Source: Eledone cirrhosa (Eukaryota). Taken from it: a DNA stretch of 64,000 nt. Numbering within the stretch: the stretch's first letter is position 1; each line of letters starts with the position of its first letter. The notes beneath the pieces were generated by a model. It saw only the letters and a list, made by a program, of their open reading frames with translations, did no database searches and was not told the DNA's origin. The position numbers were made by a program, and so were the translations under genes. The stretch covers positions 356,872,001 through 356,936,000 of the forward strand of contig OZ024742.1 of the NCBI GenBank assembly GCA_964016885.1, written 5' to 3'. Below are positions 11,243 to 41,855 of the stretch, one piece after another.

Positions 11243-11493
11243 CGCACACAAAAACAAGATGACGTAGGACAGAACAAAGGAGAGGCACAAAACAAAGAAA
11301 AGAATCCCCAGTCACTGAAGAGGTCACATAATGTGTGACGAAAGAACTTTGACAATATATGAACAACCGTCCGGTTATGGAACCAACCAACCAGCCGGAA
11401 ATTTATAAATTTAATCTATAATAAATTGAAGTGAAAGCAACTGGTGCGTGTGTTTCTTATTGGCAACATGACCCTCCCAAAGCATAACAATAT
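11243..11493 (+). mobile_element. Solo Penelope-like pseudo-LTR fragment between (TA)n runs
   Basis: Matches the 3' pLTR of the element at 37466-44145; contains the hammerhead motif at 11311-11353. Confidence 0.9.
11311..11353 (+). ncRNA. Minimal type I hammerhead ribozyme motif (Penelope pLTR)
   Basis: GUCA-CUGAAGA-g-GUCACA uaaug UGUGAC-GAAA-GaaC-UU-UGAC: conserved core, stem II, minimal stem III and 4-bp stem I. Confidence 0.65.
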
Positions 11494-13009
11494 ATATATA
11501 TATATATATATAAACATAAATTATCGAGATTCGCATTTCGGCCCACGAAATAACGAAAAACAACCTCCAAGATGTGCGGCAAGTGCTCAATGATTCAGAA
11601 GAACCAGAGCTATAACAAACGTTAAAGGCCAAACACACTGAGCCGATGGTTAAACAATCCTTCGCATAGCCAAAAAAACGATCAAGTAATTCGGGTATTG
11701 AACATTTACCCAGACACCTGGAAGGTTGGTAAAATCCAGTATATGGGTTTCTGCGGCTCCTAAATCAAGTACCGTCCGCTTACATAAATAATGTCAGGCT
11801 TCTGGTAAGATGATTGAACAAGGAAGCCACTTTCTCAACAGGTTTTAGTTCAATGTTAATACAAAGACTGACTATTGCTGACCCCACGTGGGGATCGGCA
11901 AGGGAGGCAACCCCTATATCTGGCGAATGAATTCAGTTGTGTATATTCTTGCAAGAATGCAAAAACATCACAAATCGAATAGAGTTCTCAACAGAAGGGT
12001 TAACATTAACATAAGCCATTCATCAGTCAATAGAATCAACTAAAAAATCAAGAAAATTAACTGGTCAATAGCTAGAGTCTGGAGAATAATACAAACATAA
12101 ATATATATATATATAAAGAGGGAGAGAGAAAGAGTTAATTGGAAATGTGATCAAAAGAAATAGTGATATGTCATACTCTGGATCATAATCAGACAAGAAA
12201 AACCAAATTTAAGTGATCATAATGGTTGTAACAGTGACACCAATACCAACAATTACAATATACACTAGAAATGTCTCATTGTATATCTATATGTTGTTCT
12301 ATAATGACACCCTACTTTTAATTGAATTTCACATAATCAAACATGGTCATTGAGTTTGTTTTAATATAATTATTGCATATTGAATAAATTATCAAACCTG
12401 TATAGGAAATTAATAATAAGTATTTGAATCACAATTTTTTTAAAATTGAATGTTAAGTTATGTTTTGGAATATTAAACAGGTGAGAAATAATTGTCTGCT
12501 TTTATAAAATTCTATCAAAGGAATTTGTAATTCGAAAAAAAGAATATAATTATGATTTTATATAAAATTCCTTGTGAAACAAATACAACACCACCACACC
12601 CAAACAGTATACACACACACAAATACATGCACAAACAAAGACAACCAAAAAGACAAATGTTATAGAACCACAACAATAATCACTGAAGATGTCACATAAA
12701 AAATGTTGATAAATTATCTTTATATATTTTTAACTGTTGGTCAATCAATGATAACACTGGTCAACAAAATGTTGCTTCTTTTTCTGCTGACCTGAATTTG
12801 AGACCTGTTCTTGAATAACTTGGGGCTTCTGAGTTTAAAAATGACAATACTTTTTTTTATCACGTCAGATTGATTTTAAGAAATAACACAGGTGTTCAGT
12901 AGCTTGGCTTCATTACGAAGAAAATGTTTGCATTCCCCTGACTCTTGTTGTTATATATGCAGTAGTTTCAGAGTATCAAGTCAAAGAATAAACATTAGTG
13001 AATTTGTGA

Positions 13010-15636
13010 GAAGAGCATACTTGGCTTAATTTAAGCTCACTTGGTGATCAGGATAGATCGTATGCCCCACACAATGCATGTAAACCATGTGTCAAAAATC
13101 TACACCAATGGACAAAGGTCACAAGGAAATAACTAGCATTTGGCATTCCTTTGGTATGGCAGGAGCCAAAGAACCATACAGACGATTGCTGCATTTGTCT
13201 CAAAGACTTCTGATTATAGCAAGAAAACTTGACAGAAAATAAGTTACCCAAATCTGGATTCAACAAATCGACATGTGCTTTACTCGGATGAAGTACCAGT
13301 ACCTGGGATGAACTACCAGTACCTGGGATGAAGTACCAGTATCTGGGATGAACTACCAGTACCTGGGATGAAGTACCAGTACCTGGGATGAAGTACCAGT
13401 ACCTGGGATGAAGTACCAGTACCTGGGATGAACTATCAGTATCTGGGATAAACTACCAGTATCTGGGATGAACTACCAGTACCTGGGATGAAGTACCAGT
13501 ATCTGGGATGAACTACCAGTACCTGGGATGAAGTACCAGTACCTGGGATGAAGTACCAGTACCTGGGATGAACTACCAGTACCTGGGATGAACTACCAGT
13601 ACCTGGGATGAAGTACCAGTACCTGGGATGAAGTACCAGTACCTGGGATGAAGTACCAGTACCTGGGATGAAGTACCAGTACCTGGAATGAAGTACCAGT
13701 ACCTGGGATGAAGTACCAGTACCTGGGATGAACTACCAGTACCTGGGATGAAGTACCAGTACCTGGGATGAACTACCAGTACCTGGGATGAACTACCAGT
13801 ACCTGGGATGAAGTATCAGTACCCGGGATGAAGTACCAGTACCTGGGATGAAGTACCAGTACCCGGAATGAAGTACCAATACCTGGAATGAAGTACCAGT
13901 ACCCGGGATGAAGTGCCAGTACCCAGGATGAAGTACCAATACCCGGGATGAAGTACCAGTACCCAGGATGAACTATCAGTACCCAGGATGAAGTACCAGT
14001 ACCCGGGATGAAGTACCAGTACCCGGCATGAAGTACCAGTACCCGGGATGAAGTACCAGTACCCAGGATGAAGTACCAGTACCTGGGATGAAGTACCAGT
14101 ATCCGAGATGAAGTACCAGTACCCGGGATGAAGTACCAGTACCTGGGATGAAGTACCAGTACCCCGGATGAAGTACCAATACCCCGGATGAAGTACCAAT
14201 ACCATGGATGAAGTACCAGTACCCCGGATGAAGTACCAGTACCCCGGATGAGGTACCAATACCATGGATGAAGTACCAATACCTGGGATGAAGTACCAAT
14301 ACCCGGGATGAAGTACCAGTACCCGGGATGAAGTACCAGTACCCGAGATGAAGTACCAGTACCCGGAATGAAGTACCAATACCCGGGATGAAGTACCAGT
14401 ACCTGGGATGAAGTACCAGTACCCGGGATAAAGTACCAGTACCCGGGATGAAGTACCAGACCCCAGGATGAACTATCAGTCACCAGGATGAAGTACCAGT
14501 ACCCGTTTACACAAAATTACCATCACTGGAAGATGAAAGTGATATTTGTATATCAGATGAAAATTATGATCATAACAGATTTTTTAGCTACAACAAACAA
14601 GGAACTGAATGATTTAGCTGGAGACTTAGTCAAAAGAGTTATCAGAACTGTTAGCTTCTAGACTTAAAGAGAAGATTATGCTGCAGAAAGAAACAAATGT
14701 AACTTTTTATCAGAACAGAGGAAAAATATCTCTTGGCATTCTTTTAAACTGAAAAAAATATTGTCTACTGTTGCGATGTCGTGGAACTGCTAAAAGTGAT
14801 AGGTGCTCTACAGTATGATACTCTCAAATGGAGACTCTTTACAGATAATTCAAAGAAGATTCTAAAATGTGTATTACTCCATAATGGAAACTTGTTAGGT
14901 GTAATTCCTATTGGTCACTCTGTACACATGAAAACATAAACAACTGTATTAGATTTACTCAATTATGATGAACACAAATGGGACATATGTGCAGACCTGA
15001 AAATGGTCAACGTTTTATTTGGCCAACAAGGAGGGTATACAGAATATCCATGTTTCCTGTGTTCATGAGATAGCTGAGTAAAAGACAAATATTGGAAACA
15101 AGAAAAAGTGTGATTGTTGGGGAGAAGAATATCATACACCAACAGCGTGTTGGGTGAGAGAACATCTTCTTCCCACCCCTTCATATTAAACTAGGACTAA
15201 TGAAGTAGTTTGAGCAACATTTTCTGGCCTAAGTTATGACAAAATAAAGGTTGATGTTTTTGACAGGACACAAATCAGAAAGTTAATGAAATGCCAAAAC
15301 TTCTTGAGCTTGATGACTGACATAGAAAAAGAGCATGAGATTCATCTGTGTCTGTTATGAAAGGACTTTGGGGCAGCAAAAAGGCTGCAAACTACAACGA
15401 TTTGGTGGAGACATTGCTTGATAGCTTTTAACATGAGCATAAATATTCATTTCCTCAAGAGCCATCTCAATGAATTTCCTGCTAATCTTGGAGACATGAG
15501 CGATGAGCATAGCGAACGCTTCCATCAAGATATCAAGGTTATGGAGGAGAGATATCAAGGTAGATGGCACACACACATGATGGCAAACTACTTTTGGAGT
15601 ATTCAAAGAGACTGTGTACGCATAAAAACCCCATAA
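13010..15636 (+). pseudogene. Disrupted transposase of the Chapaev3-like element
   Basis: Motifs recoverable across many stops and frameshifts; ORF 15418-15636 is the C-terminal remnant. Confidence 0.8.
13286..14505. repeat. 20-bp minisatellite (61 units) inside the transposase CDS
   Basis: Unit ggatgaagtaccagtacc(t/c)g; 1220 bp with no spacers. Confidence 0.97.
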
Positions 15637-40667: not shown

Positions 40668-40919
40668 TGAATGCGTGTGTGTTGTTGTTGTTGATGTGTG
40701 CTGTTGTTGATGTGTGTTGTTGTTGTCTCCATGTGTGTTATCGTTGTTGTGTGTGTTGTTATTGTTGTTTGTGTCTGCGTGTCTGTTGTTGTTGTATCTG
40801 GGTATGTTGCTATTGTTGTTGTTGTTGATGTGTGTGTTGTTGTTATTGTTGTTTGTGTCTGTTGGGATGTGTGTTGTATATGTGTGTGCGTATATTGTTG
40901 CTTTTGTTTTTGATGCTCC

Positions 40920-41855
40920 AGCGTAGTTTTGTAAATGATTTTTCTATTTCTGACAGACAACTAATCATATTTACCTTCTTGAATGTCGTAAATTTGGGCG
41001 GCAGACATAACACAGACATTTCATCATTATCTGTGGATTGGCAGTATCAGTGGAGGGTCGGACGCCATGCTTTGCAGCACAGTTACGTCCCTTTACGTAC
41101 TGAGTTCAAAACCCGCCGAGGTTAACTTTGCCTTTCATCCTTAAGGGGTCGATAAAATAAAGTACCAGTAATACACTGGGATAATTGCTGGCCTTGTGCC
41201 AAAAGTAGAAACAATTATCTATTTCTGTGTTCCCATAAATGTTGGTATTTTTGTTATTGAACTCTTCTGATAATGAGGTGTCGGCCATGTTGATACCGTC
41301 AATTTTGTCGGGATATCTATTGGTATACTCTATAGTATCCTGATTTAGCTTTGCCTGTTTAAGCCACTTTAGTTTCCTGTTAAAGTGCTTATCACATTCT
41401 TGAGTAATGTACTGTTCTTCGGGGCATATAAGGCTTATAAATATTAGTTTTTCTGTTGGTGTGGTGATTTTAGTTATTTCTTGTATTAGGTTACGCTTTT
41501 GTTTTTCTTGATGACTTAATTCTCTATAGATCTTCTTTTTTATGTTTAGAATTAAAGTTCGTTTTAGCCTATCTGCTTGTTTTTTGGTGAGTTGTAATCT
41601 TCTAACGTCGGTATTGATGGTGTTGGTGTAGATTCTGGAAGTGGCGCACAGCTTTATGAAGTGTAGTTGTCGAGATGTTATGGTTTTTCGTAGACAACAG
41701 AACATGGTGGTTTTCAGTATCTTGTTAGCCTGGCTAAGGCTTACGATATTTCGTTTCTGAATTGGTTTAGCAAGATTCTTTATCTGAAATCGTGTGTTGA
41801 AACCGATATTGTTATACTTTGGGAGGGTCATGTTGCCAATAAGAAACACACGCAC
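40920..41855 (-). pseudogene. N-terminal part of the Penelope ORF, interrupted by a SINE
   Basis: ORF 41106-41855 up to GNTEIDN, continuing after the SINE as DEMSVLCLPPKFTTFKKVNMISCLSEIEKSFTKLRW. Confidence 0.75.
41033..41213 (+). mobile_element. Nin/Deu-type SINE inserted in the Penelope ORF
   Basis: Full SINE body flanked by 7-bp TSD ATTATCT (41026-41032, 41214-41220). Excision restores ...GNTEIDNDEMSVLCLPPKF...KLRW. Confidence 0.92.

Follow-up and report, generated by a model that had tools for sequence, protein, structure and literature searches.

The 64,000-bp stretch of the Eledone cirrhosa genome analysed here (assembly GCA_964016885.1, contig OZ024742.1, positions 356,872,001 to 356,936,000; hereafter the window) carries copies of a Penelope-like element (PLE), family 1 (F1), that end at one of two sites just inside the start of the element's open reading frame (ORF): site A at ATG+26 and site B at ATG+86. 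The two-end rule is real, strong and general within this genome (3.0 Gb). Copies joined head to head almost always carry one end of each type, their two arms share a template with sense-strand polarity, and the ends meet (TA)n in a conserved ATAT register. These units probably arise by twin priming, in which (TA)n would be cut on both strands and a single sense RNA would serve both 3' ends as template, one starting at A and the other at B; the same stretch would be copied twice, and the resulting cDNAs would be fused in head-to-head orientation.

Two ends, one of each per unit

F1 ends were sampled from copies on contig C1, between 0.2 and 31 Mb, by merging the first-listed matches to two anchors upstream of site A into 109 blocks; three cross-hits to a second family (F2), five low-complexity alignment breaks and six internal or read-through matches were set aside. 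Of the 181 terminal ends, site A accounts for 91 and site B for 82, leaving 8 at other positions. The original prediction, made from the window, was that breakpoints cluster at two ATAT motifs and that (TA)n is the target; 173 of 181 ends agree with its first part and, for the second, 157 of these 173 adjoin at least 10/12 (TA)n letters. Genome-wide, exact patterns (degenerate for the B end) recovered 13,874 A ends and 15,526 B ends (~1:1), or ~29,000 F1 ends in total, together with 485 read-through copies, and the 19-mer upstream of A has 28,968 exact matches. Among 100 arms anchored on a predicted hammerhead motif, 53 reach A, 43 reach the tail between A and B, and 4 stop earlier. Twelve matches to the site-B read-through motif with 46-bp spacing (G000:C1:132947045-132947572) form a minisatellite born from the tail region.

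Sixty of 62 pairs of divergent F1 neighbours were accepted as continuous element sequence. These inverted units comprise 54 A/B, one B/B and no A/A, with an eroded end in the remaining five (n=60), so that 54 of the 55 with two clean ends are A/B (binomial p=1.3e-15, i.e. ~1e-15, vs independent choice), and the proposed excess of A/B pairs over chance is upheld. A recount from coordinates only, which covers largely the same stretch and is not independent, gave 46 A/B, three B/B and no A/A; in the main count, the two ends of one of these B/B rows enclose an eroded A arm. Short inverted B pieces are also present at the 5' end of seven of the 33 apparently solo A arms.

F2, whose reverse transcriptase (RT) is 67% identical to that of F1, has at least 8,091 tailed copies in the genome. 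Its ends lie at A (+26) and at two downstream sites, B1 (+69/71) and B2 (+84), the latter ending in TAT in the same register as F1 site B. Removal of 8 duplicates from 63 rows left 55 F2 units: 28 A/B1, 21 A/B2, one B1/B2 and five with an eroded or interrupted end. F2 was sampled mainly via its tail, so A/A units could hardly show up in this count. F2 also forms a head-to-tail array of 4,147-bp units in locus L308 (G000:C1:14385500-14395499), with two complete units whose frame is split at the identical place, and short A/B1 head-to-head units are tandemly amplified five and four times in L289 and L304, respectively, with (TA)n spacers. F1 and F2 units often stand tail to tail within one (TA)n array (C1 blocks from 5322222, 18387737, 19308560 and 23090400), which argues that old insertions seed targets for new ones.

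One template for both arms

Divergence between the arms of a unit has a median of 2.2% vs 6.9% to other copies and lies below the latter median in 32/33 pairs; the partner arm is closer than any other arm in 12/33. No mixed F1/F2 unit was found among 95 family-diagnosable units. Rare changes common to both arms include 18/34 A>G (sense strand) and a single T>C, vs 33/181 A>G among changes seen in one arm (p=5e-5). From their polarity and clustering, the A>G marks are likely ADAR edits of the template RNA that now stand in germline DNA. Copies dense in sense-strand A>G are L328, L339, L359, L336, L348, L356 and L358.

L328 has more than 30 A>G changes in both arms; 26 of its rare A>G changes are shared and three are confined to one arm, and in two further hyper-edited A/B units all rare A>G changes, 28 and 91 respectively, are present in both arms. 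Genome-wide, an edited 27-mer of L328 is matched only by its own two arms. The A arm of L328 extends to -518, 330 nt further upstream than the B arm, which reaches only -189 but includes the tail. Taken together, polarity and shared edits indicate that one sense RNA served both arms, and the three informative edited pairs (3/3) point to a single RNA molecule as the template. Among 28 other matches (e.g. L330-L335), many dispersed, diverged copies have two identical changes in the hammerhead core, which suggests that a lineage spread with a damaged ribozyme.

Junctions and arm geometry

Between +20 and +300, no alternating AT run of at least 4 nt exists apart from those at A and B. At B, the in-register junction G/ATATAT (slash at the junction), a 2-nt extension across one mismatch, was seen in 13/82 ends and in 16 of the first 100 matches to the genome-wide B pattern, and in none of the first 100 of the 485 read-through copies. 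Off-register forms occur in 2/82 B ends, and the like extension at A, where the terminal pair is lacking, in 1/91 (p=4e-4). At F2 site B1, the junction CTA/TATA is found in 21/36 arms marked by TCG and 0/10 marked by TTGC, so register follows allele. Pairing of 2-5 nt with ATAT therefore likely sets the exact junction register; later slippage at inserted copies could contribute some in-register forms, though the contrast between A and B is hard to account for in that way. TA runs of equal or greater length at -139 (7 nt), -90, -66, -50 and +16 serve as end points for a handful of copies at most, and an ATAT inside the F2 tail (+23 of tail) is almost never used. Since better runs nearby go unused, position appears to select the sites, and the 2-5 nt pairing to set the register. 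The original prediction had the RNA anneal to (TA)n through either ATAT; this stands for the register and fails for microhomology as the means of choosing a site. Conserved residues behind the two ATAT motifs were not seen in distant homologues, and a hairpin joining A and B is not supported, as folds of the tail region are weak and differ among copies and families (z -0.2).

The arm reaching further upstream is A in 25, B in 20 and neither (within 15 nt) in 9 of the 54 F1 A/B units. Of 43 asymmetric central junctions, 27 hold filler, at least 2 nt long in 22, and 16 are flush or overlapping. Some fillers are copied from adjacent sequence, and a few junctions are palindromic. Eight of the 16 filler-free junctions overlap by at least 2 nt vs 13% in simulated chimeras (p=0.004), but microhomology as the rule at the centre was rejected since 27/43 bear fillers. 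In sequence, these junctions look like the end-joining of two separately made cDNAs.

The 5' ends of arms pile up at -262 to -235 (17/107 paired arms and 9/63 solos, e.g. window position 11243), at a density of 0.6 per nt vs 0.07-0.13 on either side. This hot spot may be the 5' end of the transcript, which would fit internal initiation near the RNA start. It adjoins a AAGATGGCG motif, which we take to resemble a YY1 site. A smaller cluster at -147 to -139 lies beside the predicted hammerhead cut. Duplications with non-TA letters flank 5/60 units vs 9/505 shuffled pairs; (TA)n hides most, and there are hints only of target-site duplication.

The element in the window

Seven ends in the window had been listed in the original prediction, and all are present and enter (TA)n: A at 11493 (+), 20484 (+) and 34320 (-), B at 19806 (-), 36091 (+) and 37466 (-), plus 36772. 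Both inverted pairs in the window are A/B, as it had noted. The end at 36772 had been assigned to the same element; the pseudo-long terminal repeat (pLTR) upstream of it fails to align to the window element and belongs to F2, which has the same A end, ATG+26. Positions 41747-41830 had been read as an internal pLTR and are actually the first 86 nt of the ORF, with the ATG at 41831, which makes A and B the edges of the PLE 'tail'. The features are as follows.

37466-41831, minus strand: main F1 unit, with ATG, N-terminal domain, RT, GIY-YIG, 3' pLTR and a type-B end on (TA)n
37965-40943, minus strand: open RT-GIY-YIG frame with DKS, DVVSLY and YVDD motifs, a C-x4-C-x2-C linker and a VVY..C..C..YIG endonuclease
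41033-41223, strand unassigned: ~190-bp dispersed repeat inside the ORF, with six further copies in the window
41746-41805, minus strand: 60-nt tail between sites A and B, read through into the ORF here
41809-41806, minus strand: ATAT of site A (ATG+23..26)
41749-41746, minus strand: ATAT of site B (ATG+83..86)
41832-44145, minus strand: 5'-truncated upstream copy (3' half of RT, endonuclease, 3' untranslated region), forming the partial tandem and 5' pLTR
41972-42016, minus strand: minimal type-I hammerhead motif in the pLTR (pattern match)
37684-37728, 34465-34509, 35855-35899, 20018-20062 and 11310-11354: further copies of the hammerhead motif (pattern match)
11243-11493, plus strand: single-armed F1 copy with an A end, its 5' end near -253 right after (TA)n
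19806-20152, minus strand: B arm of head-to-head unit 1
20170-20484, plus strand: A arm of head-to-head unit 1, separated from the B arm by a short filler
34320-35170, minus strand: A arm of head-to-head unit 2
35178-36091, plus strand: B arm of head-to-head unit 2
36429-36772, plus strand: single-armed F2 copy with an A end at ATG+26

On the minus strand, the truncated copy (44145-41832, 97.6% identical to the main unit and without an inverted arm at its 5' end) passes seamlessly into the full unit (41831-37466), a partial tandem typical of PLEs. The main copy is broken rather than intact, with the ~190-bp repeat inserted in its ORF at 41033-41223; an uninterrupted frame from the ATG is found in F1 locus L002, where residues ~240-430 form a long Asn/Thr-rich stretch resembling the N-rich inserts of rotifer PLEs. 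The arms of unit 2 differ from each other at 20/837 aligned bases vs 51/851 against the main copy.

In both families the gap between RT motifs A and B is ~128 residues (window 39230-39620, minus strand), which is longer than in canonical RTs and possibly a fingers insertion. The predicted hammerhead motif (CTGA-N-GA, stem II, GAAA, minimal helix III) occurs at six places in the window, ~145-190 nt upstream of the ATG, and is of the minimal type-I kind described in the part of PMC4209133 consulted. It has no Rfam match and its folding z-scores are non-significant; Rfam returned for the window only spurious microRNA-type matches to palindrome and TA arrays.

The RT-GIY-YIG frame in the window has no Pfam match, the Pfam GIY-YIG match to the duplicate copy (E 4e-4) is under the curated cut-off, and PDB yielded nothing beyond a weak match of the GIY-YIG domain with I-TevI (E 0.19). 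The F1 protein has 330 homologues, of which the best named is an Octopus vulgaris protein (66%); named Neptune references are not among them. The element has one ORF with a PLE-type RT and GIY-YIG, partial-tandem pLTRs and an adjacent inverted 5'-truncated copy, as in endonuclease-positive PLEs, and an optional tail into the ORF start at one end (60 nt in F1; 43-45 or 58 nt in F2). The linker reads C-IDKK-C-IT-C in the window ORF and C-TNRK-C-II-C in F2, both of the CX2-5CxxC type, and by inspection the endonucleases of both families are CCHH, with two Cys between VVY and YIG and His downstream. By the architecture criteria of PMC8557442, as far as consulted, F1 fits a Neptune-like PLE, in a group that is itself paraphyletic (PMC8557442): the C-terminal GIY-YIG with CX2-5CxxC linker and CCHH, the hammerhead and the microsatellite preference are alike, and Neptune has DKG where the window element has DKS. 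Naiad/Chlamys, which has no canonical hammerhead, is set apart by the C-terminal rather than N-terminal endonuclease and the presence of a hammerhead motif, the Hydra clade (CCHH absent, CxCX5C, DKT, <3 kb) by the Cys pair, DKS and a unit of more than 4 kb, and the Penelope/Poseidon clade, which lacks the CX2-5CxxC linker, by the presence of that linker.

Other repeats in the window

The ~190-bp SINE-like repeat (short interspersed nuclear element), which we take to be of octopus type, has further copies at 10691-10875, 16721-16868, 24934-25000, 25679-25860, 52510-52640 and 53766-53834. RTE-like fragments of long interspersed nuclear elements (LINEs) with RT and PHD finger lie at 20930-23880 (+), 45460-46203 (-) and 47112-48065 (+), and a second LINE fragment, of APE type, at 48847-50953 (+). 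Tandem arrays occupy 1-3333, 13286-14503 and 61782-64000, with units of 57-60 bp, 20 bp and 48 bp, respectively.

Mechanism and alternatives

In the sequence of events that we infer (the cut, the two RT active sites, the strand displacement and the end-joining), the GIY-YIG endonuclease would cut both strands within (TA)n, and two RT active sites, probably of a dimer, would hold the RNA at A and B through protein-RNA contacts. Each 3' end, paired through 2-5 nt to the AUAU or UAU at its site, would then be extended toward the 5' end of the RNA, the trailing RT displacing the leading cDNA; we know of no RNase H in PLE RTs. Being of the same sense, the cDNAs could not anneal, so host end-joining would unite them in head-to-head orientation, with fillers or microhomologies at the join. 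An arm would stop randomly or at the RNA 5' end near -250, and where one arm stalled after 0-30 nt the copy would appear single-armed. We are evenly divided on a broader proposition, obligate twin priming in PLEs, by which one ribonucleoprotein would use a single sense RNA and two fixed, register-matched sites, every insertion would begin two-armed, the tail, the inverted pLTR and the solo copies would be outcomes of how far each arm runs, and microsatellite-targeting clades would have evolved a telomerase-like template match of 2-5 nt.

Several observations weigh against twin priming on one RNA. No second-arm stub was detected in 26/33 solo A and 25/25 solo B arms. The F1 exceptions comprise a single clean B/B unit, one A/+20 unit and one -14/A unit, the last possibly A/A, and contig C1 between 0.2 and 31 Mb is the sole F1 sampling region. 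In F2, the sites of the B1/B2 unit are just 13-15 nt apart, tight for two RTs, and L370 is an inverted duplication of type B2/B2 whose outer flanks are identical. Thirteen of the 18 shared A>G changes derive from one unit (L180, the same as L328), and L359 is symmetric and so compatible with fold-back of a single cDNA. The near-identical duplicated F2 units L371 and L372 differ at one end (B1 vs A); an inserted copy can thus have its end altered later, and conversion could account for part of the arm identity. For Poseidon PAc of the green anole, the start site is reported as non-homologous to the cut DNA, with no start-site difference between strands (PMC11167929, in the part consulted).

Fold-back is an unlikely source of these units. 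It would have the cDNA primed once, at B, then fold back, copy itself and exit at the site A ATAT by pairing with the second (TA)n end, with later deletions at the palindrome centre leaving arms of unequal length. Palindrome centres are unstable, and under fold-back too one would expect A/B pairing, arms that are identical and edits present in both; symmetry within 15 nt in 9/54 units, and in L359, also suits it. The B arm should then, however, match or exceed the A arm in length, whereas A is the longer in 25 units and B in 20, and seven units combine a long A arm with a B piece of ~15-30 nt or little more. A strand heading to A would also first meet the longer ATATATA at -139, which is unused, central fillers are common, and in vitro the RT initiates at each edge of the tail (PMC11167929, as consulted). 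Use of two RNAs, one per RT subunit, in an asymmetric complex that dictates A and B would account for the pairing without strand displacement, with the likeness of arms owed to a single expressed source locus or to conversion, and L371/L372 show that ends can change post-insertion. The molecule-specific A>G patterns common to both arms in 3/3 informative pairs, the L328 pattern without a third copy in the assembly and the 0/95 mixed-family units make this quite unlikely.

The original prediction's own version, in which either ATAT anneals to nicked (TA)n and microhomology alone decides, draws on the fact that both sites end in ATAT, the sole such runs in +20..+300, and that register is kept at junctions. 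Free choice would give A/A and B/B in half of units, vs 1/55 observed, and equal or longer upstream TA runs and the ATAT of the F2 tail (+23) are almost never used, so that it is very unlikely and largely refuted as the sole rule. Self-priming of an antisense transcript, with the endonuclease trimming one end of the resulting head-to-head repeat, is a published hypothesis for palindromic junctions (PMC3846280; PMC8557442, in the parts consulted), of which a few are present here; with shared changes at 18 A>G vs 1 T>C on the sense strand, the template was sense RNA, and end type is independent of which arm is longer, leaving this highly improbable and largely refuted. It is scarcely credible that all copies insert with a B end and acquire A ends by later loss of the 60 nt between ATAT and (TA)n. 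The duplicated unit L371/L372 does differ by exactly such a stretch, but tail loss cannot yield exactly one A per unit, and the A/B state is already present in units whose arms are young and almost identical; the pair counts refute it as a general cause.

Relation to known elements and significance

Twin priming as proposed here for F1 has a counterpart in L1, in which, following Ostertag and Kazazian, both target ends are said to prime on one RNA, giving an inverted structure with a microhomology join. There it is reportedly occasional, with a variable, internal second site and cDNAs covering different parts of the RNA; in F1 the two sites do not vary, lie 60 nt from each other and both give rise to copies of one and the same stretch. 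Endonuclease-positive PLEs are described with an inverted pLTR and an optional tail of 30-40 nt (Arkhipova 2013, PMC3846280; Craig 2021, PMC8557442; parts consulted), vs 60 nt here, where one-sidedness is near absolute and counted. In the same sections, one-sidedness is put down to resolution by the endonuclease or to antisense self-priming; the sense-strand edits contradict this. In vitro, Poseidon PAc has two internal RT start sites at the tail edges in the ORF start, and both strands are cut and extended at an AT-rich target by a predicted dimer, the hammerhead being dispensable (Frangieh 2024, PMC11167929, in the part consulted). F1 is from a different clade and its junctions keep a 2-5 nt AT register, and the consulted part of that report does not state that both sites, or a single RNA, serve one insertion.

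The element type, the one-sided tail, RT initiation at two sites and the bias toward (TA)n are thus already known, and the suggestion that the window held an undescribed signature survives for the near-absolute pairing, which was not found in print. One-of-each pairing, twin priming on one RNA and register evidence in PLEs were not found in the literature searched, with subscription papers outside its coverage; the consulted parts of an Octopus vulgaris repeat annotation (PMC13282606) and a 2026 retrozyme preprint hold nothing on PLE ends. The origin of the tandem and inverted PLE insertions and of the tail is named as an open question in the parts consulted of PMC8557442 and PMC11167929.

For annotation, A-ended, B-ended and inverted copies are one family. 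PLEs are the retroelements closest to telomerase. Tens of thousands of copies here lead to a sharp, testable rule, by which an insertion would use one A and one B start, one sense RNA and short target pairing; the rule speaks against antisense self-priming and yields direct predictions for the existing in vitro system.

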